Below, one piece after another: positions 29,014 to 40,638 of a stretch of DNA of 64,000 bases. A program made the position numbers and the translations under genes. This DNA is from an uncultured Oscillospiraceae bacterium (lineage in GTDB: Bacteria > Bacillota > Clostridia > Christensenellales > CAG-138), in assembly GCA_964642795.1 (NCBI GenBank), contig CAZXRQ010000001.1:3288-67287 (forward strand), given 5' to 3'. Positions within the stretch are counted from its first letter, which is position 1. Each line of letters opens with the position of its first letter. The notes below the pieces were generated by a model. It saw only the letters and a program-made list of their open reading frames with translations. It was not told the DNA's origin and made no database searches.

Positions 29014-30000
29014 TCAGCGGGCTCCTTTATCGTAGGGTATGCCTTCAGCCTTAGGCGCTCTGGACTTTTTGGATGTGAGTATCAGCAATATCATGGTGAC
29101 GATGTAGGGCAGCATGAGATACAGATACTCGCTGGATTTGACGTTGCTAAAGCTGGGCAGGAACGGGATAGAGCCACTGTACGAGCCGACTATCTTGAAC
29201 AGCGCGAAAAACAGCGATGCGCCAAGAATGTTCATGGGCTTCCAGTTGCCGAATATCATAACTGCCAAAGCCAGGAAGCCGTAGCCGGCGACGGAGGATT
29301 GGAACGCGCTGCCGGCTGCCAGCGTATACGCAAGCCCGCCTATACCGCCGAGCAAGCCTGATATCATGACGCCAGCATAGCGCATACGGTACACGTTTAT
29401 GCCTACGGAATCTGCGGCCTGAGGATGCTCACCGCAGGCACGAAGCCTTAAACCAAAGCGTGTCTTGTAAAGCAGTATGACCGCCACGATAAACAGCACA
29501 ACGGCCACAGGTGTCGTAAGGAAAAAGCTTTTGAATACCAAATTCTGGAAAAAAGTGTTCTTAACGGCTATACCGAGGGTGCTTTGGCTGATGCGCGCCC
29601 AGGTGGGTATTAGTATGTTGGTTTGCCCTTGACCCTGAACCGCCCACGTGAGAGTTATTGCAAACGCTGGAGCGAACATATTCAGTGCGGTGCCGCCAAT
29701 GGTCTGATCGGCTTTCAGCTGTATTGAGGCGAACGCCAGCGCCAGCGAGAATATCATGCCGGAGCCTGCCGCAATGAGTATGGCAATAAGCATGGCCTGC
29801 TGAGGATGCATGGCTCCAAGGCCGGAAAGATCGGCAGAGCGCAGGTATAGCGTGCCGAACAGCGCGCCTATAACCATGATACCCTCAAGCGCTATGTTGA
29901 TTATGCCGCTGCGTTCGGAAAACATACCGCCCAAGGCTACCAGCAGCAGCGGTACTGCAAATATGATGGTTGCGGCGAGAATATCGGATAGAATATTCAT
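29014..30000 (-). CDS. Nucleoside (BMP-family) ABC transporter permease
   Basis: 328 aa with 8-9 TM helices, resembling the branched-chain/ribose-type permease fold of NupQ/YufQ. ATGA overlap with the upstream permease. Confidence 0.8.
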   Translation of the reverse strand: MNILSDILAATIIFAVPLLLVALGGMFSERSGIINIALEGIMVIGALFGTLYLRSADLSGLGAMHPQQAMLIAILIAAGSGMIFSLALAFASIQLKADQTIGGTALNMFAPAFAITLTWAVQGQGQTNILIPTWARISQSTLGIAVKNTFFQNLVFKSFFLTTPVAVVLFIVAVILLYKTRFGLRLRACGEHPQAADSVGINVYRMRYAGVMISGLLGGIGGLAYTLAAGSAFQSSVAGYGFLALAVMIFGNWKPMNILGASLFFALFKIVGSYSGSIPFLPSFSNVKSSEYLYLMLPYIVTMILLILTSKKSRAPKAEGIPYDKGAR

Positions 30001-31160
30001 GCTTCGTCGCCCTCGCTTTCCTTGGTATTTGCTTCATCAGGCAAAACGGGTTTAGGCTCCGGATCGGCATTGATGTTGCCGTAGTCATGCAGCTTCTTGC
30101 GCGCGAGCAGCTCGCGTATCAGCAGCGAGAAGGCCGCAAGGTAGATTATCACTGCGATGATGATATCGATTATCTCCTTTACGAACTCAGGCTGCATAGC
30201 GTCGCCGCCGACCTGAATATAGGAGATGAACAGCGCCGAGAACACAGTGCCGAGCGGATGAGAGGAGGCGAGCAGCGCGACTGGGATACCGTTAAAGCCC
30301 ATTGCCAGCAGCGACTTTACCAGCGTATATTGGCCGGTGCCTGCAAGGAAGTACAGTCCGCCGCCCACGCCGGACAGCGCTCCTGCGATGACCATGGAAA
30401 GCACGATGTTGCGTTTGGCGTTGATACCAGCGTATATGCTGGCGTTCTTATTGTGGCCGCAGGCCTTCAATTCGTAGCCGAAGGTAGTTTTTGTGAGTAT
30501 TATCCACATAATGATCGCAAAAAGTATAGCGATAAAAATGCTTATGTTCATATAGTTGCTGTTGAGCAGCTTGTCAAGCCCCATGCGCGGTATCAGTGCG
30601 GACGGGTTGGCCTTTGCGAGGTTTGCGGTGCGGTCCATCTGTGCATCGCCCCAGTATTTTGCGAGCATCATGGGCAGATTGGATATTGAAAAGTTTACTA
30701 GGAACATGGATATCCAGTTGAACATTATTGAGGTGATGACTTCGTTAACGTTGAACAGCGCCTTAAAAAGACCTGGGAACATACCCCAAAATGCGCCGCC
30801 TATCATCGCCATTACAAGGCAGATGTACCACGGCTGCTGGAACTGTATTGCAAATACCAGCGCGAGCCCTGCGCCTATGGTATACTGGCCGGTTGCGCCT
30901 ATATTAAACAGGCCGGTTTTGAATGCGAAGCCGACGGAGAGCCCCACCATTATCAGCGGAGCGGCCTGATACAGCACCTTGGCGATCTTGTCGGAGGACC
31001 TTATACCGGCGCTTATAAGGCTTTCAAAGCCGCGCAGGGCAAACTGCGAATTAAGCGCAAACAGCAGCGCCAAGCCAAACAGCAGCCCTATACAGATCGA
31101 TATAAGGGAGGCTAAGAAGCTGGTGCCTCCTGGTATATGAAAACGGCGTTTTTTATTCAT
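29997..31160 (-). CDS. Nucleoside (BMP-family) ABC transporter permease
   Basis: Polytopic and NupP/YufP-like. ATG 31160 (MNKKRRFHIPG) overlaps the ATPase stop by 8 nt. The longer track start lies inside the ATPase gene. Confidence 0.8.
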   Translation of the reverse strand: MNKKRRFHIPGGTSFLASLISICIGLLFGLALLFALNSQFALRGFESLISAGIRSSDKIAKVLYQAAPLIMVGLSVGFAFKTGLFNIGATGQYTIGAGLALVFAIQFQQPWYICLVMAMIGGAFWGMFPGLFKALFNVNEVITSIMFNWISMFLVNFSISNLPMMLAKYWGDAQMDRTANLAKANPSALIPRMGLDKLLNSNYMNISIFIAILFAIIMWIILTKTTFGYELKACGHNKNASIYAGINAKRNIVLSMVIAGALSGVGGGLYFLAGTGQYTLVKSLLAMGFNGIPVALLASSHPLGTVFSALFISYIQVGGDAMQPEFVKEIIDIIIAVIIYLAAFSLLIRELLARKKLHDYGNINADPEPKPVLPDEANTKESEGDEA

Positions 31161-32709
31161 TTGCTGAACCCTCGCTTTCGGTTTGCCTGCTTTGGCGCTT
31201 TGCACCCGCCATGTAGAGGCCGAGCTCACTGACGTTGGTGACCTTAGGATCAAACTCACCGACGATTTCGCCCTCGTACATCACGAATATCCGGTCGCTT
31301 ACGTTCATAACCTCGTCAAGCTCCAGCGATATAAGCAGCACGGCTTTACCCTGATCGCGCTGGGCCACAAGCTGCTTATGAATGTACTCGATAGCGCCGA
31401 CGTCCAAGCCGCGGGTAGGCTGAACAGCTACGAGCAGCTCCGGATTCTTGTCGATCTCACGGGCGACTATGGCCTTTTGCTGGTTGCCGCCGGACATACT
31501 GCGCGCCGGAGTAAGGGGACCCTGGCCGCTGCGGATATCGTATTGCTCAATCAGTTTTTCGGCGTAGGCGCGTACGGCGTCCTTTTTGATGAAGCCGTTG
31601 TGCTGGAACTGAGGCCGCCAATAGCGCTGCAGCACAAGGTTTTGCTCCAGCGTATAGTCGAGAATGAGACCGTACTTATGCCTGTCCTCGGGGATATGGC
31701 TCATACCGAGTGCAGAACGGGAGCGGATGCTGGATTTGGTTATATCCTGCCCGCACATGGTTATGCTGCCTGCGCTCATCTTCTCAAGGCCGGTAAGCGC
31801 ATACACAAACTCGGTTTGGCCGTTGCCCTCGATACCGGCAAGGCAGACTATCTCGCCGCGGCGTACTTGCAGGGAAACGTTTTTAACGGCGTTGTTCCTG
31901 TGAAGCTTGCTGGGCACCGTGACGTCATCTACTTCCAGCACGACGTCGCCGGGGACGGACTCCTCCTTATGTACCTGAAACTCCACGTCGCGCCCTACCA
32001 TCATGCGGGAAAGCTCCTGCTTGGTGGTGTTTGCTATCTCAACGGTGCCCATGCATTTGCCCTTTCTGAGCACCGTGCAGCGATCTGCAACGGCCATTAT
32101 TTCGTTGAGCTTGTGGGTTATGAACAGTATGGATTTGCCTTCGCGCGTAAAATTGCGCATGATCTCCATAAGCTCGTCGATCTCCTGCGGGGTAAGGACG
32201 GCGGTTGGTTCGTCAAAGATCAGTATTTCATTATCGCGGTACAGCATTTTCAGTATTTCAACGCGCTGTTGCATACCGACGGAAATGTCCTCGATTTTTG
32301 CATCCGGGTCTATGGCCAAACCGTATTTTTGGGAAAGCGCAACTACCTTTTCACGCGCCTCGGCCTTCTTCAAAAAGCCTATTTTATTGGGCTCCACGCC
32401 TAGGATTATGTTGTCCAATACCGAAAAGACCTCAACCAGCTTGAAGTGCTGGTGTACCATGCCAATGTTTAGCGCATTGGCGTCGTTGGGATCCTTTATT
32501 TTTACGGGCTCGCCGTTTTTTTTGATCTCGCCGCTTTCGGGCTGATACAGGCCGAAAAGCACGCTCATAAGGGTGGATTTGCCAGCGCCGTTTTCACCTA
32601 GCAGCGCGTGGACCTCGCCCTTTTTAAGCTGCAAAGTAATGTTGTCATTAGCGCGTATGCCCGGAAAATCCTTTGTGATGTTAAGCATCTCTATGACGTA
32701 CTCGCTCAT
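31153..32709 (-). CDS. Nucleoside/sugar-type ABC transporter ATP-binding protein (duplicated NBD)
   Basis: Two NBDs. The first has Walker A GENGAGKST and signature SVGMQQRVEI. The second has GIEGNGQTE and signature SGGNQQKA. Confidence 0.9.
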   Translation of the reverse strand: MSEYVIEMLNITKDFPGIRANDNITLQLKKGEVHALLGENGAGKSTLMSVLFGLYQPESGEIKKNGEPVKIKDPNDANALNIGMVHQHFKLVEVFSVLDNIILGVEPNKIGFLKKAEAREKVVALSQKYGLAIDPDAKIEDISVGMQQRVEILKMLYRDNEILIFDEPTAVLTPQEIDELMEIMRNFTREGKSILFITHKLNEIMAVADRCTVLRKGKCMGTVEIANTTKQELSRMMVGRDVEFQVHKEESVPGDVVLEVDDVTVPSKLHRNNAVKNVSLQVRRGEIVCLAGIEGNGQTEFVYALTGLEKMSAGSITMCGQDITKSSIRSRSALGMSHIPEDRHKYGLILDYTLEQNLVLQRYWRPQFQHNGFIKKDAVRAYAEKLIEQYDIRSGQGPLTPARSMSGGNQQKAIVAREIDKNPELLVAVQPTRGLDVGAIEYIHKQLVAQRDQGKAVLLISLELDEVMNVSDRIFVMYEGEIVGEFDPKVTNVSELGLYMAGAKRQSRQTESEGSANE

Positions 32710-32866
32710 TATCGGATGTTCCTTCCATATAAATATAAATATACAAAAAAGCTTTAGTACACGACGTATAATGCCGTAAGAACGAACAGGGAGATTTTTG
32801 CGATAAAACGGAAAGGGGCTGGGCTATATGCCCAGCCCCTTGTGTGAACTAACGGTCGATGCAGGA

Positions 32867-34027
32867 TTACTCCTGATAATCAACAGCGATGGAAACAGCG
32901 GGGTGGTTCTCGATGTCGGGAGAAACGACGATCTCGCCGGATACCAGCTTTGCGTAAAGCGCTTCGTAAGCGTCAACGGTGAAGTCGCCCAGCTTCCAGG
33001 AAGCATCGGCGGTGGGGATGCCAACGGAGCCCTGCTCGGCGCCATAGCTGATGCCGTGGCCGGAATAGTCGGCGGGCAGCGTGCCGCCATTGTCATAATA
33101 GGCGGTAAGCGCAGCCTGAACGGAGCCGTAAAGATCCTTCATGGCAGAGGTGATGATGCGCTCGTTGATGTAGCCCTGGTCGACGTCAACGCCAATTATC
33201 TTGCCTTCGGCGGTCTCTTCAGCGGAAGCGATGGCGGAATACAGTATGCCGCCGCCAGCTGCGAATATGACCTCGGTGCCTTCGGTGTACCAGCCGGCGG
33301 TCTTGGTCTTGATATCATCGGTGGGAGCGAAGGAGCCGGAATACCAGTACTTCAGCTCGATGTCGGCGGTGTTGCCAAGCTCCGCAGCAGCAGCGTCAAC
33401 GCCCTGCACGAAGCCTTCACCATAACGGACGACGGCGGGAACAGCCATGCCGCCAAGGAACGCCAGCTTGGTGTAGCCGGCCATTACGGCGGCGTAACCG
33501 GCGAGATAACCAGCCTGCTCCTCCTGATAGCAGATAAGCACGGTATTCGCCGTGGGCTCTGCAACGTCAGGATAGGAGGGGTTGGTCTCAGAGGAGGTCA
33601 TGTCGATACCGATAAAGGTAACATCAGGATACTCCTGCGGAACGGCGTTGAAAGCGCCTGCAAACAGATAGCCCGGGCATACGATGACCTTAGCGCCCTT
33701 GTCGATGGCGGTCTTGATGGTCTCTATGCGGGCTTCGTCGCTGTCCTCAGAGGGACGGTAGTAGTTGAAGGTTTTGCCGTTAGCTTCGGCATAATCCCTT
33801 GCGCCTTCATAGGTGAACTGGTTGAAGGACTGGTCGTCAATGTTGCCGACGTCGGTGATCATAGCGATCTCATAGGTGCCTTCCTCAGCGACGACCTCTT
33901 CCTCGGTGACTTCTTCAGTGGTTTCCTCAACAACGGGTTGTTCGGTGGCACCTTCGTCAGCAGGCTGGCAGCCTACCACTGCGAAGACCATCACGAGTGC
34001 CAGCAATAATGCGGCGATTTTCTTCAT
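32867..34027 (-). CDS. BMP family (Med/PnrA-like) nucleoside-binding lipoprotein
   Basis: Lipobox MVFAVVGC and an acidic linker. BMP-type core (IAMITDVGNIDDQSFNQ, GYLAGYAA, FAAGGG). Confidence 0.85.
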   Translation of the reverse strand: MKKIAALLLALVMVFAVVGCQPADEGATEQPVVEETTEEVTEEEVVAEEGTYEIAMITDVGNIDDQSFNQFTYEGARDYAEANGKTFNYYRPSEDSDEARIETIKTAIDKGAKVIVCPGYLFAGAFNAVPQEYPDVTFIGIDMTSSETNPSYPDVAEPTANTVLICYQEEQAGYLAGYAAVMAGYTKLAFLGGMAVPAVVRYGEGFVQGVDAAAAELGNTADIELKYWYSGSFAPTDDIKTKTAGWYTEGTEVIFAAGGGILYSAIASAEETAEGKIIGVDVDQGYINERIITSAMKDLYGSVQAALTAYYDNGGTLPADYSGHGISYGAEQGSVGIPTADASWKLGDFTVDAYEALYAKLVSGEIVVSPDIENHPAVSIAVDYQE

Positions 34028-34226
34028 TGGTGATTCCTCCTACAAATTCTTTGCTGTAAGTTACAGCATCAGTATATTGATATTCTATCATCACAGCCAA
34101 AATAATTAAAGTATATAACCCAAAAAAGATGCGCAGTTTTTTGCAGCGTTGCAATGTGTTTGCATTTTCGGGTATATTTCAACTTGTTGGTGTGGTACAA
34201 TAGCAAAAAAAGAGAAAGAAATTGGC

Positions 34227-35060
34227 ATGTTTGGGTATATCCTGCCAAACAAAAACGAACTCAAGGTAAGGGAGCTGGCCGAGTACAAAGCATTTTACTG
34301 CGGCCTGTGCCATGCAATAAGCGCTAGATACGGTCAACTGCCCAGGATGTCCCTCAGCTATGACTGCGCTTTTGCGGCGCTGATCGTGAGCGGCTTTTAT
34401 CCCTGCAGCGGTTTTGAACTGCACCGCTGTGCCTATAAGCCGCTGAAGCGGAAAATACCGGTGGCGCGCAGCAGTCCGGCATTGGACTTTGCAGCGGATC
34501 TGAACGTTCTGCTGAGCTGGTATAAGCTCGAAGACGATTGGCACGACGAGAAAAAAGTATCCGCGCTTGCCGGAAGGGCGGCGCTGTACCCGGCGGCAAA
34601 ACGCGCTAAGCGCATTGCGCCGGAGCTCGACGGGGTGATCGCAGAGGGCATAGCCGGGCTTTCCAAAATAGAAAACGCGTCATGCGCGGAGCTCGATCCG
34701 GCTGCAAACGCGTTTTCCGAGATGCTCGCCAACGCATTTTTGCTTGCGCCGCTTCCGGACGACGATGCGCGCAGGATAATTAAAAGCATAGGCTTCGGTT
34801 TGGGCAGGTGGCTGTATCTTATGGATGCGTGGGACGACCGCGGCAAGGATAAAAAGACCGGCTCGTACAATGTATTCAACCTGTGCAACAGCGACGAGGA
34901 ACAGGCGAAATTCCTGCTTAACTTCGCACTTAACGGAGCCATAGACGCATATGACCTTATGGACGTAAGATCGCACAAGGGAGTGCTGGATAATATAATG
35001 TATACAGGCTGTGTAGAAAAGACAATCGCGCTTGTAGGAAAGGGAAAGGACATTGAATAA
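34227..35060 (+). CDS. DUF5685-like protein, function unknown
   Basis: N-terminus [49 protein letters not shown] matches my recollection of the Firmicute DUF5685 family. First gene of a tightly coupled 3-gene unit. Confidence 0.6.
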
Positions 35061-35691
35061 TCCCTATTCGGTTTTGGGAGTGCGCGAGGACGCGTCGCAG
35101 GAGGAAATCCGTGCGGCGTATCTCAAGCTGGTGAAAAAATACCATCCCGACAAATACGCCGACAGCGACCTCAAGGAGCTTGCAAACGATAAGCTCAAGG
35201 AAGTCAACGAGGCTTACGATATGCTGACCAAGCGCAACGATGCCGGCAGAACTGCCGAAAGCGCCCGCAGCTACGGCGGCGCGTACAGCGGTACGGGCAG
35301 CTCGTATTCCGGCCCCAACTCATCGGATTTTTCCCGCGCCAGATCCTATATAAACCAAAATAATCTGCAGGCGGCAAAGCAGGTGCTGGACGCCATATCT
35401 ATACGCAACGCCGAATGGTATTACCTTTACGGCATAATATACCTTAGGCAGGGCTGGCATGCCAAGGCCAGCGAATACATAACCATGGCATACCAGCAGG
35501 AGCCGGGCAATCCGGAATACAGCAGCGCCTATCAGGCCATACGTAATTCCGGCAGCACTTACTATAACCGCAGCGCCGGCTCGGGCAATCCGTATGCCAG
35601 CGATTGCAGCGGCTGTGATGTGTGTACGGGGCTTCTCTGCACAGATTGCTGCTGCGAGTGCATGGGCGGGGACTTTATCCCCTGCTGCTGA
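35053..35691 (+). CDS. J-domain protein with TPR-like middle and C-terminal cysteine-string tail
   Basis: J domain NPYSVLGV...YHPDKY (HPD motif). TPR-like segment [24 protein letters not shown]. The tail [28 protein letters not shown] has 10 Cys in 28 aa. TTG start overlaps the upstream stop by 8 nt. Confidence 0.75.
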
Positions 35692-35700
35692 GCGACGCAT

Positions 35701-36237
35701 ATGGCTAACGGCTTTTCTACAGCCCGAAAACTGACCTACGGCGCCGTATGCACGGCACTTTCTTTGCTTGCTCTCGTGCTTGCGGGCGTGCTGCCCACAA
35801 TGCGATTAGCGTGTTATTTCATAAGCGCTCTGTTTGTATATGTGCTTTCGCGGGAAAGACTGTACGGCGAGGCGTGCATTTGCTTTTTGGCGGTGTGCGC
35901 GCTTTCTCTGCTGCTTTTGCCCGATAAGCTGACCGCGCTTCCGTATGCTGCGCTGCTTGGCCATTTCGGCATTTTCAAGCCGGCGGCGGACAACCGCTTT
36001 GGACAAAAACCAGCTGGATTTATACTATGCGTGCTGTATTGCGACGTGTTTTTTGCTTTAGGCGTGTTTGTCGCGGTGCGACTGTTTGACTTCGACGCTG
36101 CTTCGCTTTCCCGGTATGCCGTGCCTGTATGGGCGCTGGCAGCGGCCTGTCAGCTTGCGCTGATATTGTTCGTATGGCTGTACGGTGTGTGCCAAAGGGT
36201 ATACGAAAGACGTTTTAGAAACCTGCTGCTTAAATAA
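35701..36237 (+). CDS. Polytopic membrane protein, unknown function
   Basis: 178 aa with about 5 hydrophobic helices. ATG lies 9 nt after the J-protein stop. Confidence 0.55.
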   Translation: MANGFSTARKLTYGAVCTALSLLALVLAGVLPTMRLACYFISALFVYVLSRERLYGEACICFLAVCALSLLLLPDKLTALPYAALLGHFGIFKPAADNRFGQKPAGFILCVLYCDVFFALGVFVAVRLFDFDAASLSRYAVPVWALAAACQLALILFVWLYGVCQRVYERRFRNLLLK

Positions 36238-36313
36238 TAAAAACCGTATTATCCGCGCTTAAGCGCCGCCGAGGTTGGCAATGCTAAATAAAAAGTAGTA
36301 TTGCGCTTCGGGG

Positions 36314-38671
36314 GTGATATTTTTGGATGCTGTAAAGAAGAAAAAACGTGGACGCTGGTTCCGGCGCTTGCTGCTTACGGTATCGCTGTGCGTGCTGGCG
36401 TTTTTGCTGTTTTTCGCAGTACGGTTGTTTCAACTGGACGCATGGCACGAATTTGATCCGGACAAGATACTCGGTGCGGATCAAACGCTGATATTGTACG
36501 ACGGCGAGCAAAATGAGATAGTCCGTCTGCACAGCACAGAGGACAGGGTGATGGTGGCGCTTGAGGATATTCCATATCTTACACGCATGGCCTTCGTCTC
36601 GGCGGAGGATGCACGGTTTTATGACCATATCGGCGTGGACTTCATACGCATAGTCGGCGCTGCGTGGGCAGATCTGAAGGCGGGCGGATATGTTCAGGGC
36701 GCGTCCACGATAAGCCAGCAGCTCATAAAGCTGAGCCATCTTACCGCGGAAAAGACCATAACGCGCAAGCTGGAGGAGGCGGTGCTGGCCTATCAGATGG
36801 AGCGGCAGTTCAGCAAGGACGAAATACTCGAGATGTATCTCAACTACGTGTATTTCGGCGGCGGCTACTACGGGATAGAGGCGGCCGCGCTGGGCTATTT
36901 TGGCGTACACGCGAGCGAGCTCGACATATCGCAGTCCGCGATGCTGGCGGGCATATTGAAAGCGCCGGGGCGCTTTGCGCCGCACATAGATTACGACGCC
37001 TCCATAGGCCGCAGGAATGTGATACTGTCCCTTATGCAGGAATACGGTTATATCGACGCCGACACTGTGGCGGTGGAAAGAGAAAAAGAGCCGGTTATAC
37101 TGCATGACCCGACTAATACAGCGGTGCGCGGCTATTACGTCGATACGGCTATCAGCAGCGCGGCGAGGCTGCTTGGCGTATCGCAGAACGAGCTTCTTAC
37201 AGGCGGCTACCGAATATATACCTGCATGGATGCCGAAGCGCAGTATGAATGTGAGCGCATATTTGCCGAGAGTGAGGCGTTTCCTACGGATAACGTGCAG
37301 GCTGCGATAGTGCTGCAGCGCGCCGGAACGGGGGAGGTAGCTGCGCTTATGGGTGGCCGTGACGGGAGCGCTGCGATGTCCTTTAACCGGGCAACGAGCA
37401 TACGCCGCCAGCCGGGCTCGCTGATAAAGCCGATAATATGCTACGCTCCGGCGCTGGAGTACAGCGGCTATACGGCGGCAAGCATACTGTTGGATGAGCC
37501 GACCAGCTTCGGGGACTATTCGCCCGGCAACAACAATGATAAATACTACGGCTATGTTACATTGCGCCAGGCGGTAACAAAATCGCTCAACATACCGGCC
37601 GTGAAAGTGCTGTCCGACGTGGGCCTTACGCGCTGCATGGCGTTTGCCAAAAGCTGCGGCGTAGAGTTTTCCATAGGGGACGAGAGCCTTGCGCTTGCTT
37701 TGGGCGGCTTTACATACGGGGTATCGCCGCTGCAGATGGCGGGAGCATATTCCATGCTTGCATCCGGGGGCGAATATTCCTCGCCTACCGTTATACGGAG
37801 CATAACCGACGCTTCCGGAAACGTGCTGTACAAATATGAGCCGGAATGTGAGCGGCTCATGTGTGAAGAGAACGCCTTCATACTTACCAGTATGCTTGAA
37901 AGCGTGATAAGCGACGGTACGGGCAGGCGGCTTGGAGAGCTGGGAATACCGCTTGCGGGTAAAACAGGCACCGTGGGCGGCGACAACGGCAACCGCGATG
38001 CATGGATGGCCGCATATAACTCCGAATATACCGCAGTGGTATGGATGGGTTACGATGATAACAATATCGAATACCTGTCGGACGACGCTACCGGAGGAAA
38101 GTATCCGGCGCTGATACTTTATGAGCTGTTTGCTTCGCTGTACGACGATACGGCTGCGCCGGGTTTTGAGATGCCGGAAGGCGTGGTGATAAGAAGGCTG
38201 GATGGCAGCACCATGCAGACGCACCACCGCACCGTACTCGCAAACGCACTTACGCCGGCTTCCAGCGTATACAAGGAATATTTTAAACTCGGCACCGAGC
38301 CGGACGAGGAAACGGACTACTGGGTAATACCCTCGCGTCCAGGCGGGTTTGCTGTAAGCGTTGATGAAGCCGGCAAGCCGGTGATAACCTTCAACGCGGT
38401 GCAGGAATTTGTAAGCTATGCGCTTTACCGCGAGGGCGGCAGCGGGGAACCGGTGCTGCTGAAAAGCTGGTCCGGCATTACGGGCAGGCAGACATATACC
38501 GATCAAAGCGTAATGCCAGGTGCAGAATATGTGTATTACATAGTACCGGTGCATATGGAGCTTACCGTAAACGGGAAAAAGGTCACCGGCCTGTCCACGC
38601 GCAGTATAACCGTGGAAACACCTTTGATAACGCCGACAGAATTGCAGGAGGATATCGATTTCACGGGCTGA
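36314..38671 (+). CDS. Class A penicillin-binding protein (PBP1A: glycosyltransferase GT51 + transpeptidase)
   Basis: GT51 motifs EDARFYDHIGVD, GASTISQQL and RKLEEA. Transpeptidase motifs SLIKP (SxxK), KSLN (SxN) and KTGT. GTG start at 36314 is uncertain (TTG 36323 is the alternative). Confidence 0.9.
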   Translation: MIFLDAVKKKKRGRWFRRLLLTVSLCVLAFLLFFAVRLFQLDAWHEFDPDKILGADQTLILYDGEQNEIVRLHSTEDRVMVALEDIPYLTRMAFVSAEDARFYDHIGVDFIRIVGAAWADLKAGGYVQGASTISQQLIKLSHLTAEKTITRKLEEAVLAYQMERQFSKDEILEMYLNYVYFGGGYYGIEAAALGYFGVHASELDISQSAMLAGILKAPGRFAPHIDYDASIGRRNVILSLMQEYGYIDADTVAVEREKEPVILHDPTNTAVRGYYVDTAISSAARLLGVSQNELLTGGYRIYTCMDAEAQYECERIFAESEAFPTDNVQAAIVLQRAGTGEVAALMGGRDGSAAMSFNRATSIRRQPGSLIKPIICYAPALEYSGYTAASILLDEPTSFGDYSPGNNNDKYYGYVTLRQAVTKSLNIPAVKVLSDVGLTRCMAFAKSCGVEFSIGDESLALALGGFTYGVSPLQMAGAYSMLASGGEYSSPTVIRSITDASGNVLYKYEPECERLMCEENAFILTSMLESVISDGTGRRLGELGIPLAGKTGTVGGDNGNRDAWMAAYNSEYTAVVWMGYDDNNIEYLSDDATGGKYPALILYELFASLYDDTAAPGFEMPEGVVIRRLDGSTMQTHHRTVLANALTPASSVYKEYFKLGTEPDEETDYWVIPSRPGGFAVSVDEAGKPVITFNAVQEFVSYALYREGGSGEPVLLKSWSGITGRQTYTDQSVMPGAEYVYYIVPVHMELTVNGKKVTGLSTRSITVETPLITPTELQEDIDFTG

Positions 38672-38792: not shown

Positions 38793-39197
38793 ATGATTAT
38801 ATTTGGCATCATGCTTATACTTGCCGGAGTGATAGTCCTTATCGCTGCATTTTCACAGTGGCTGCAAAACCGCTCCTATGCCGCCTGCTCTGCAAGCGTT
38901 ATGGCGACGGTCACAAGAAAAACCAGCCGTGTTACCAAGCGCGGCCGGGTATACGAGCTGTATGTTGCTTATACGGTGGACGGTGTGCCATATGAGAAAT
39001 GGGTTTGCTCCAAGGCGGATGAGTTTGACGGCATATCGGAGGGAGGGCAGGTCGAGCTTAGATATAAACCACGCGCTCCCAAGCATTGCGTGCGCGTATG
39101 GCAGCTGTCGCCAAAGGCGGTACGCGCGCTGTTCATCGTTGGCGCAGTATTGACCGTTGTGGGCGTTGCGCTGTATCTGGCGGGCTATTACATGTAA
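38793..39197 (+). CDS. DUF3592-like membrane protein
   Basis: N- and C-terminal TM helices flank a small beta-rich domain (YAACSASVMATVTRK...VYELYVAYTVDGVPYE). Confidence 0.55.
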   Translation: MIIFGIMLILAGVIVLIAAFSQWLQNRSYAACSASVMATVTRKTSRVTKRGRVYELYVAYTVDGVPYEKWVCSKADEFDGISEGGQVELRYKPRAPKHCVRVWQLSPKAVRALFIVGAVLTVVGVALYLAGYYM

Positions 39198-39324: not shown

Positions 39325-40638
39325 ATGCGAATGGTGGATCTAATACTCAAGCAGCGCGAGGGCGGCGCTTTGACTCGCGAAGAACTGCGTTATATAGTAA
39401 GCGGCTTTGTGGCGGGAGACATTCCCGATTACCAGATGGCCGCATGGATGATGGCGCTGTGCTTTACCGGCATGGAAAAACAGGGCATAGCCGAGCTTAC
39501 TCTCGCCATGACGGAATCCGGCGATATGATAGACCTTTCGGATCTGCCCGGCGTAAAGGTGGATAAGCACTCCACCGGCGGCGTAGGCGATACCACAACG
39601 CTGGTAGTTGCGCCCCTTTGCGCGGCCTGCGGAGCTACCGTCGCTAAAATGAGCGGCAGAGGATTGGGGCACACCGGCGGTACGCTGGATAAGCTGGAGA
39701 GCATACCCGGCGTAAGCGTTATGCAGCCGATAGAACGCTTTAAACAGATAGTGAGGGAGATAGGCCTTTGCGTGATCGGCCAAACCGGTAATCTCGTGCC
39801 TGCGGATAAGCTGATGTACGCATTGCGCGACGTTACCGGCACCGTGGAGAGCATACCGCTGATGGCATCCAGCATAATGAGCAAAAAACTGGCCGCCGGC
39901 ACCGATGCCATAGTATTGGACGTTAAGGTGGGCAGCGGCGCGTTCATGCATACAGTGGAGGACGCTAAAAAGCTCGCACACACTATGGTAGATATCGGTG
40001 AACACCTCGGCCGGCGTACCGTCGCGCTGATAACCGATATGAATCAGCCGCTGGGCATGGCGGTAGGCAACGGGCTGGAGGTGCGCGAGGCGGTTGAGCT
40101 GCTTTCAGGCTGCGTGCCGGACACCGATCCGCTGTACGAGGTGTGTATGCTGCTGGCCTCCAATATGCTGATGCTTTCGAATATCGCATCCGATGAGGCG
40201 GAAGCGCGCACACTGTTAAAAAACGCATTGGACTCTGGAGCGGGACTTAACAAGCTGAAGCTGATGATAGCCTTGCTGGGCGGCGACGTTTCCTGCATCG
40301 CTGAGCCGGATCTGCTCTGCCGCGTGAAACGGCAGGTGCCGGTGATACCGGGCAAGGCCGGCTTTGTGGGAGATATGGACGCCGTGGGTATAGGCAATGC
40401 CGCGCAGATGCTTGGCGCAGGACGTGCAACCAAAATGGATGTTATAGACCCTGCCGTAGGGCTTGTGATGCAAAAGCGCCGTGGAGACGCCATACGCTTT
40501 GACGAGCCGGTAGCGGTTTTGTACGTAAACGACGAAACCAACCTTGACGCGGCGGCGGAGCTCGTCAAGACCTCGATAGAGATCGCGGATATGCCCGTGC
40601 AGCATGTGCCCATGATACATGCAGTGGTGAAGGGATAG
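39325..40638 (+). CDS. pdp: Pyrimidine-nucleoside (thymidine) phosphorylase
   Basis: MRMVDLILKQREGGALTREEL, KHSTGGVGD and SGRGLGHTGGTLDKLE are canonical Pdp/DeoA motifs. Confidence 0.92.
   Translation: MRMVDLILKQREGGALTREELRYIVSGFVAGDIPDYQMAAWMMALCFTGMEKQGIAELTLAMTESGDMIDLSDLPGVKVDKHSTGGVGDTTTLVVAPLCAACGATVAKMSGRGLGHTGGTLDKLESIPGVSVMQPIERFKQIVREIGLCVIGQTGNLVPADKLMYALRDVTGTVESIPLMASSIMSKKLAAGTDAIVLDVKVGSGAFMHTVEDAKKLAHTMVDIGEHLGRRTVALITDMNQPLGMAVGNGLEVREAVELLSGCVPDTDPLYEVCMLLASNMLMLSNIASDEAEARTLLKNALDSGAGLNKLKLMIALLGGDVSCIAEPDLLCRVKRQVPVIPGKAGFVGDMDAVGIGNAAQMLGAGRATKMDVIDPAVGLVMQKRRGDAIRFDEPVAVLYVNDETNLDAAAELVKTSIEIADMPVQHVPMIHAVVKG

Follow-up and report, generated by a model that had tools for sequence, protein, structure and literature searches.

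Why should a protein family of unassigned function, a J-domain protein that ends in a dense run of cysteines, and a small polytopic membrane protein be encoded in one tight unit, and what could such a unit do? The question is raised by positions 34227-36237 of the window analyzed here, a stretch of 64,000 nucleotides (nt) of contig CAZXRQ010000001.1 from an uncultured Oscillospiraceae bacterium, in which gene 1 (a DUF5685 protein), gene 2 (a J-domain protein with a C-terminal cysteine string) and gene 3 (the membrane protein) follow one another on the plus strand. Comparison of gene order together with predicted structures makes it highly probable that they represent a conserved, coupled pair of a divergent DUF5685 protein with isoprenoid-synthase fold and a cysteine-string J protein of class C, often joined by a third gene product that resembles the S components of energy-coupling factor (ECF) transporters. 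An initial annotation of this DNA, made from the sequence alone, had noted that no experimental characterization of the module was known; likewise, no prior characterization was found in the literature, and the proteins bear generic names only. DUF5685 was mentioned in a single paper, in passing, in a list of domains of C. difficile hypothetical proteins (PMC9403866; strain R20291 reportedly has such a protein), and a large census of J proteins provided only a generic DnaJ-TPR class.

Gene 1 (34227..35060, ATG start) encodes a soluble, all-alpha protein of 277 residues whose N-terminus includes the stretch YCGLCHAI. Gene 2 (35053..35691) encodes 212 residues from a TTG start, which is supported by an N-terminus, MN(N)PY, that is conserved among its homologues, and gene 3 (35701..36237) encodes 178 residues with six predicted helices. 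The stop of gene 1 and the start of gene 2 overlap by 8 nt (35053..35060, plus strand), an arrangement of translational coupling, and the gap between the stop of gene 2 and the start of gene 3 is 9 nt; the coordinates of the open reading frames (ORFs) thus bear out the tight three-gene unit, with its overlap and its gap, that had been described earlier.

The gene order was then followed across genomes. A reference scan with one genome per GTDB species gave 535 genomes with a DUF5685 relative, and inspection of the best 80 loci revealed a J/TPR/cysteine-tail gene immediately downstream of DUF5685, on the same strand, in 79 of them, the sole exception being cut off at a contig end. These 80 loci are fairly close relatives; a distant branch (approximately 33% identical to the window protein) was added from metagenomes, and the resulting 160 near and distant loci were dereplicated at 90% identity into 113 groups. 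Among the 104 groups with enough sequence, 103 retained the pair of DUF5685 followed by the J gene, and the lone exception was a contig of approximately 1x coverage with a truncated J gene. In most groups the start of the J gene overlaps the stop of DUF5685 by 4, 8, 14 or 17 nt, and the same order is present in independent database gene calls.

Gene 3 had a different distribution. Neighbor clustering combined with an iterated profile search showed that the J gene is followed within 0-30 nt by a relative of gene 3 in 53 of 93 informative groups (24/61 near groups and 29/32 distant groups); gene 3 is missing from about 40% of the modules. A first reading of gene 3 as a lineage-specific accessory, based on its detection by single-sequence phmmer in 29 of 80 loci, was ruled out by the distant branch and the iterated profile, with which 29 of 32 distant groups were found to have it. 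The trio looks ancestral, with loss of gene 3 in some lineages, such as the Christensenellaceae-type loci. The recurrence of the pair in 103/104 groups and of the trio in 53/93 groups argues against a gene order produced by chance. The earlier proposal that the trio is co-conserved therefore stands in full for the pair and only in part for gene 3: neighborhood comparison found a co-conserved, translationally coupled operon, with genes 1 and 2 as its obligatory core. It is a conserved chromosomal module of Clostridia from both gut and environmental sources, and no neighbor other than the members of the trio is general across the groups.

The DUF5685 assignment of gene 1, previously proposed from its N-terminus, was confirmed by a full-length match to the Pfam hidden Markov model PF18937 (E=2.8e-75, 253.7 bits compared with a cut-off of 26.7, profile positions 1-270 of 272). 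The family comprises at least 5,981 clusters at 50% identity (E<=1e-3), and nearly all members are single-domain proteins of about 280 residues in which the match starts at residue 1. In a set of 60 diverse representatives that are 28-45% identical, thirteen positions are invariant (M1, G3, Y24, C25, C28, C68, D103, D107, E149, G193, D200, D204, and N215) and five are nearly so (Y4, D157, D208 in 56/60, Y214, and N256). Such invariance of Asp, Asn, and Cys residues at this degree of divergence points to an active enzyme and not a scaffold. The three cysteines, each present in 60/60 (codons at 34299-34301 for C25, 34308-34310 for C28, and 34428-34430 for C68, plus strand), form a putative three-ligand metal site; the candidate fourth position beside them is variable (H71 in 31/60, otherwise N, S or K), and C47 is present in just 13/60. 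Two Asp-rich motifs were also recognized. The first, D103-D104-W-H-D107-E108 (34533..34550, plus strand), is of the DDxxD type, with D103 and D107 in 60/60; the second, D200-A-W-D-D204-R-G-K-D208 (34824..34850, plus strand), has D200 and D204 in 60/60, an i, i+4, i+8 spacing, and is followed by Y214-N215, with N215 in 60/60.

The AlphaFold2 model of gene 1 is all-alpha, with a mean predicted local distance difference test score (pLDDT) of 93.3 and a predicted template-modelling score (pTM) of 0.90, and places both Asp motifs at the C-terminal ends of long helices, the first on helix 84-108. When this model was compared with the PDB by Foldseek, all of the top 50 matches had the class I isoprenoid-synthase fold (template-modelling score, TM, 0.55-0.61; probability 0.95-1.00); the best was the prenyltransferase MoeN5 (TM 0.61), followed by octaprenyl, geranylgeranyl diphosphate, farnesyl diphosphate, and related synthases. 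As in trans-isoprenyl diphosphate synthases (trans-IPPS) and MoeN5, the two Asp motifs of DUF5685 lie at equivalent helix ends, where they are collinear with the first and second Asp-rich motifs (FARM and SARM) of IspA. An hhalign comparison with E. coli IspA, whose reference sequence was checked against 1rqj, was not significant and was used as consistency evidence only; it was collinear over 225 columns. In this non-significant alignment, D103-D104 and D107 fell on the IspA FARM, with D103-D104 opposite D83-D84, while D200 and D204 fell on D244 and D248, the Asp residues that open and close the SARM, Y214 on the Tyr of GKSTYP, and R67-C68..P72 on the KR..RP loop that binds isopentenyl diphosphate (IPP). 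The last correspondence gives no more than a hint that in DUF5685 the Cys site may lie where the second substrate would bind.

Several features set DUF5685 apart from trans-IPPS. Its chain is shorter, and about 97 residues separate the motifs; its second motif, DxxDDxxxD (D200-x-x-D203-D204-x-x-x-D208), fits neither the DDxxD nor the NSE/DTE consensus exactly; a Cys-bearing hairpin takes the place of the GGKRxR IPP-binding loop; and its N-terminus is an invariant MxGY. On the basis of the structural model, we place gene 1 with good confidence in the isoprenoid-synthase fold, as a highly divergent member, and take it to keep the Mg2+/diphosphate-binding apparatus. The initial annotation had treated gene 1 as one of two partners of unassigned function to a J-domain co-chaperone. 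It is true that no function had been assigned to it before; a predicted isoprenoid-synthase fold with Asp-rich metal motifs, however, goes beyond that description, and the most likely mechanism is then no longer a chaperone with two clients but an enzyme that works on, or along with, the cysteine tail.

The composition of gene 2, an HPD-containing J domain, a Gly/Ser/Tyr-rich linker, and a TPR-like segment, was upheld by profile searches, in which the J domain was above the curated cut-off and the TPR part was below it. The J domain (residues 3-61, 35059..35235, plus strand) matched Pfam DnaJ (PF00226) with 60.4 bits compared with a cut-off of 27.8 (E=1.8e-16) and the J domain of E. coli DnaJ with E=2.6e-14, with H31, P32, and D33 as invariant residues. 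After the J domain come the G/S/Y-rich linker and the TPR-like segment, and a polar linker then leads to the cysteine tail. The TPR-like helical segment (residues ~95-162, 35335..35538, plus strand) is the most conserved part after the J domain, with invariant stretches NAEW, LYG, LR.GW, and P.N.EY; it matches consensus TPR proteins, and its best Pfam matches over residues 95-160 (TPR_2, 6.4e-6; TPR_16, 4.2e-5) are both sub-threshold. Homologues numbered 2,882, many of them full length at 59-75% identity. Neither DnaJ_C, the C-terminal domain with which classes A and B bind substrates, nor DnaJ_CXXCXGXG, the zinc-finger region of class A, was matched by gene 2, and the DnaJ and CbpA equivalog models reached only 30-58 bits compared with cut-offs of 338-619. 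By its sequence features gene 2 is thus a class C J-domain protein and not DnaJ or CbpA, and the public names under which the J proteins of this module are currently mislabelled are over-annotations, since both the DnaJ_C domain and the zinc finger are absent and the equivalog scores are far below the cut-offs.

Many public calls of this J gene are 80-100 residues too long (287 or 317 residues compared with about 200), including P0008, the P0418/P0419 cluster, and the J ORFs of loci L008, L017, and L020 (278 residues). They begin at an upstream in-frame codon within the 3' end of DUF5685, and one of them thereby gains a spurious DUF5685 Pfam match. The overlong calls are an annotation artefact of overlapping genes and not fusions. 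P0008 was considered as a natural fusion and rejected as a read-through gene call; no real fusions of genes 1 and 2 were found among the DUF5685 members, the longer of which carry low-complexity inserts only.

The cysteine string at the C-terminus of gene 2 (residues 185-212, 35605..35688, plus strand) contains 10 Cys in 28 residues, as first described, and ends in CC. In 103 dereplicated J partners, the tails have 20-31 residues and 6-11 Cys (34.5% Cys), arranged in 50 different Cys spacing patterns. A Cys is found within the last three residues in 103/103 and as the last residue in 90/103, and 70/103 end in CC; outside the tail, the J protein has 0-1 Cys. The tails are free of His and almost free of Lys and Arg, their other residues being Gly, Leu, Ser, Asp, Ile, Ala, and Met, with Trp in 33 of 103 and none in the window's tail. 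Several of the distant branches share a core that resembles WCxDxxCECxGGDLIxCC. No PDB match to the tail was found. The spacing in the window, CxxCxxCxxxxC without a Pro, differs from the ferredoxin-type CxxCxxCxxxCP. The terminal Cys, the 50 spacings, the lack of His, and the hydrophobic or small nature of the other residues would suit a string of acceptors or a lipid anchor better than they would a metal site of fixed geometry.

For gene 3, which has a grand average of hydropathy (GRAVY) of +1.0, about five transmembrane segments had been suggested; the AlphaFold2 model, of moderate confidence (pLDDT 78.8), instead contains six long helices. Sequence searches of Pfam, NCBIfam, and PDB gave no match. 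The only Foldseek matches with TM above 0.45 were ECF S components, namely RibU (5kbw, 5kc0, and 3p5n) and 4hzu_S; the similarity to RibU (TM 0.59-0.61, probability 0.87-1.0) has weak E-values of 0.04-1.2 with a model of this pLDDT. Like gene 3, S components have about 170-180 residues and six helices, the structural matches ranging over TM 0.47-0.61, and helix 1 of gene 3 contains an AxxxA-like pattern (A15...A19) as seen in S components, in which we take this motif to have a role. Unlike them, gene 3 has no sequence-family membership (Foldseek E 0.04-2), and recurrent ecfA or ecfT genes were not present among the neighbor clusters in the module flanks. An S-component-like fold of gene 3 is therefore probable only as judged from the predicted model. 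In 61 gene-3 relatives, G87 is invariant inside a G-x-[YF]-G-x-x-K motif. An ICMT- or Rce1-like CaaX-processing enzyme was also considered for gene 3 and ruled out, as there was no Pfam match or fitting motif.

How might these parts work together? A dedicated Hsp70-recruiting module at the membrane, as suggested in the initial annotation, would agree with these findings. By analogy with ComQ/ComX, it is possible, with a probability of roughly 0.3, that DUF5685 S-prenylates the cysteine tail of its J partner and thereby anchors an Hsp70 recruiter at the membrane. DUF5685 would bind an isoprenyl diphosphate via its two Asp motifs, a Zn-type metal held by the three Cys, with the substrate thiolate as fourth ligand, would activate the tail cysteines, and prenyl groups would be transferred onto them. 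Once lipidated, the tail might tether the J protein to the membrane on its cytoplasmic side, perhaps beside the gene 3 product, where the J domain may recruit DnaK to clients held by the TPR-like segment. This mechanism is favored since it accounts for the Asp motifs, the three Cys with an open fourth position, the terminal Cys and the loose spacing of the tail, and also for the coupling of the genes and a membrane partner in 53/93 groups. If so, DUF5685 could be, equally tentatively, the founding member of a family of bacterial protein S-prenyltransferases, built on the trans-IPPS fold and not on the eukaryotic alpha/beta barrel, and prenylating the J tail at multiple sites.

In gene logic and fold, the module is most like ComQ/ComX, and in outcome it would be most like the eukaryotic cysteine-string protein (CSP) or Ydj1. 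ComQ-family enzymes have the trans-IPPS fold, and the peptide that they prenylate, at a residue close to its C-terminus, is the product of the adjacent gene. The all-alpha trans-IPPS fold of ComQ-ComX, StheQ-StheX, PalQ, and the P domain of ChrPC is the one predicted for DUF5685, and the ComQ family, too, pairs a first motif of the DDxxD type with a second one that is modified. In ComQ-ComX and StheQ-StheX, the enzyme gene is followed at once by the gene of the modified polypeptide, with the acceptor near the C-terminus; here, the overlapping adjacent gene with its distinctive C-terminal tail (103/104) is a candidate substrate only. Differences exist as well: no match of DUF5685 to PF00348 or to ComQ sequences was found, its partner is a full-length, highly conserved chaperone and no precursor of a secreted pheromone, Cys takes the place of Trp as the conserved candidate acceptor, three invariant Cys are added, and there are no adjacent signalling genes of the ComP/ComA type.

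A number of observations weigh against S-prenylation or against the fold on which it depends. The link to isoprenoid synthases comes from a predicted structure, for which the Foldseek E-values (1e-3 to 5e-2) are weak and the identity is 10-15%, and the 60 family members did not match any isoprenoid Pfam family (PF00348, PF00494, PF19086, and others) even at E<=10. In addition, hhalign against IspA or a three-sequence IPPS alignment remained at a probability of 0.1-0.2; with a PDB profile search that gave no isoprenoid-synthase match for gene 1, this led us to drop a link at the sequence level. The conserved ..WCxDxxCECxGGDLIxCC core of some tails could instead be the sign of a folded element that binds metal. 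Conservation is higher in the J and TPR parts than in the enzyme, as a dedicated-co-chaperone model would equally predict. Finally, all characterized peptide prenyltransferases of the trans-IDS-like type (IDS, isoprenyl diphosphate synthase) target Trp and not Cys, and Cys S-prenylation is known only from eukaryotic protein prenyltransferases (2026 review), so that the prior for S-prenylation is low, an endogenous bacterial case being without precedent.

The main rival to S-prenylation is a metal or Fe-S function, in which the tail would bind a metal or cluster that the J protein and DnaK then pass on to the three Cys of DUF5685, much as HscB/HscA do for IscU. DUF5685 itself would be an enzyme of isoprenoid diphosphates that depends on a metal or an Fe-S cluster, like the 3-Cys [4Fe-4S] enzymes IspG and IspH, while gene 3 could import the metal or a cofactor. 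We regard this as only slightly less probable than S-prenylation. Three invariant Cys with a variable fourth ligand are typical of a site-differentiated cluster, the ferredoxin-like CxxCxxCxxxxC with which many tails start and the ..CECxGGD..CC core recurrent in distant branches would suit a cluster or metal ligand, the strict 1:1 pairing would suit a dedicated co-chaperone and its client, the hosts are anaerobes according to their record titles, and gene 3 has the predicted fold of micronutrient-binding S components. However, 50 spacings with 6-11 Cys in 103 tails are unlike any fixed cluster-binding motif, neither a His nor a Pro after the fourth Cys is present, the Cys kept within the last three residues of every tail has no obvious metal-binding role, and beyond the J domain no match to Fe-S, Zn or metallochaperone families was found in Pfam, NCBIfam, or PDB. 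Less likely still is an enzyme of small molecules, whereby DUF5685 would make or remodel an isoprenoid lipid or another small molecule, possibly the polyprenyl (di)phosphate carriers of envelope synthesis, and the J protein would be its dedicated DnaK adaptor, serving in folding, turnover or regulation in the manner of plant J20 with DXS or OR with phytoene synthase; the Cys-rich hydrophobic tail would then stick to the membrane unaided and gene 3 would bind or pass on the lipid product. The isoprenoid fold with intact Asp motifs would agree with such a role, as would the best structural match, MoeN5, which acts on a lipid-linked substrate, and DnaJ-like proteins are known to control isoprenoid enzymes (PMC5025653), which offers a literature analogy. 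This explanation also draws on neighboring genes, with a class A penicillin-binding protein (PBP) gene after the module in 23 near groups including the window, where no terminator is predicted between them, and IspD/IspF downstream in one lineage, but these neighbors are lineage-restricted (0 distant groups for PBP, and 2 groups for IspDF) and thus look like inherited synteny. An isoprenoid-pathway neighborhood was therefore set aside as evidence, IspDF being limited to 2 groups and PBP1A to the near sample. Left unexplained would be the cysteine string, whose terminal Cys is kept in every lineage, as well as the three invariant Cys of DUF5685.

It could also be imagined that the genes are merely cotranscribed neighbors with unrelated housekeeping roles. 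The flanks do consist of housekeeping genes (PnrA/Bmp, PBP1A, PyNP, and PolA), and fusion proteins of genes 1 and 2 are absent, but adjacency, order, strand, and overlap have been kept in 103/104 groups at approximately 30% DUF5685 identity while all other neighbors change from group to group, by which a lack of functional connection is practically excluded.

If S-prenylation does take place, the closest resemblance in outcome would be to CSP (DNAJC5) and Ydj1/DNAJA1, which likewise combine an N-terminal HPD J domain with a Cys-rich or Cys-terminal segment of lipidation type. In the eukaryotic proteins this segment tethers an Hsp70 recruiter to membranes, and the bacterial tail may be lipidated to the same end. 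By the definition of a cysteine-string protein as a J domain with clustered Cys, gene 2 belongs here (10 Cys in 28 residues), and the composition of its tail (C, L, G, S, F, and M) is also CSP-like. The string of CSP is internal and not C-terminal; that of gene 2 lies at the extreme C-terminus and, unlike the Ydj1 type, has no CaaX box. No homology to DNAJC5 was found beyond the J domain, with query residues 4-64 only and scores like those of other J domains. To our knowledge, bacteria have neither DHHC palmitoyltransferases nor alpha/beta protein prenyltransferases. A further comparison is offered by HscB-HscA-IscU, in which a specialized J protein is genetically tied to a Cys-containing partner; in contrast, HscB models reach at most 20 bits on gene 2, below their cut-offs and over the J domain only, and the module is devoid of the HscB C-terminal domain, an IscU-like partner, and an Hsp70 gene in the operon.

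What looks new here is the coupling of an isoprenoid-synthase-fold enzyme to a polypeptide partner of this kind, and DUF5685 as an unrecognized branch of that superfamily. DUF5685 is common in Clostridia of the human gut, and one partner protein alone was found on more than 670 contigs. Bacteria may thus lipid-anchor one of their own chaperones, which has so far been described only in eukaryotes, and the module could let them position DnaK at the membrane. If S-prenylation is true, this would be the first endogenous bacterial system for protein cysteine prenylation, a convergent counterpart of the lipidation of CSP, Ydj1, and Rab-type proteins, and would give many Clostridia of the gut an Hsp70 recruiter that lipid holds at the membrane. 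Should the enzyme modify the tail, the acceptors of trans-IDS-like prenyltransferases would come to include Cys beside Trp. The metal rival envisages an isoprenoid enzyme that depends on Fe-S or a metal and is served by a J protein of its own, which would be new biology as well.

Beyond the module, the window flanks are ordinary chromosomal housekeeping genes. Genes of a PnrA/Bmp nucleoside-type ABC transporter (29014-34027, minus strand) lie upstream and are divergent, the intergenic space 5' of gene 1, facing the Bmp gene, being 199 nt long. It contains a candidate promoter region (34077..34178, plus strand) with two weak sigma-70-like consensus matches (10/12 and 9/12), an imperfect palindrome at 34123-34142 (AAAAAGATGCGCA / TGCGCAGTTTTTT), and, after the palindrome, three TTGCA repeats at about 34136-34166; the palindrome and the repeats could be an operator common to both divergent promoters. 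No CIRCE operator (controlling inverted repeat of chaperone expression) was found in the window, by which heat-shock control of the module through HrcA/CIRCE was ruled out. A defence system was similarly discarded as the identity of the module, as none of the three proteins matched a PADLOC model.

Downstream, the class A PBP gene (PBP1A, with Transgly and Transpeptidase domains; 36314-38671, plus strand) begins 76 nt after gene 3, and it was found 3' of the module, with or without gene 3, in the 23 near groups mentioned above; it may be cotranscribed with the module or may reflect inherited synteny only. It is followed by the genes of a small DUF3592 membrane protein (38793-39197, plus strand, E=6.5e-7) and a pyrimidine-nucleoside phosphorylase (PyNP; 39325-40638, plus strand), and the gene of DNA polymerase I (PolA) is also present in this flank. 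Nucleoside-salvage genes recur near the module, with the Bmp transporter in 17 near groups and a thymidine kinase upstream in loci L161-L163 (L161:2384-2974, minus strand); a link between these genes and the module is not evident.

Two further neighbors are restricted to certain lineages. In 22 of 37 distant groups (among loci L116-L160, e.g., L126:3447-4001), and in neither the near sample nor the window, the gene directly upstream of DUF5685 shares its strand and encodes a CYTH domain (triphosphate tunnel metalloenzyme, PF01928, E=1.2e-24); in most cases the two genes overlap by 1 nt. The CYTH gene may be a fourth member, peculiar to this lineage, that deals in (poly)phosphate chemistry. A single lineage has, downstream of the module and on its strand, genes for a small S4-domain protein and a fused IspD/IspF of the methylerythritol phosphate (MEP) pathway of isoprenoid precursors (L164:5202-6598, also L062, L064, L066, and L165), an anecdotal occurrence, as these loci represent only 2 dereplicated groups. 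Lastly, long ORFs of 393-756 residues are present on the strand opposite the genes for the PBP, Bmp, and the ABC ATPase (36284-38554, minus strand; 32828-34009 and 31183-32403, plus strand); their translations are of low complexity and rich in Arg, Ala, and Gly, and they are almost certainly stop-poor frames of G+C-rich DNA and not genes.

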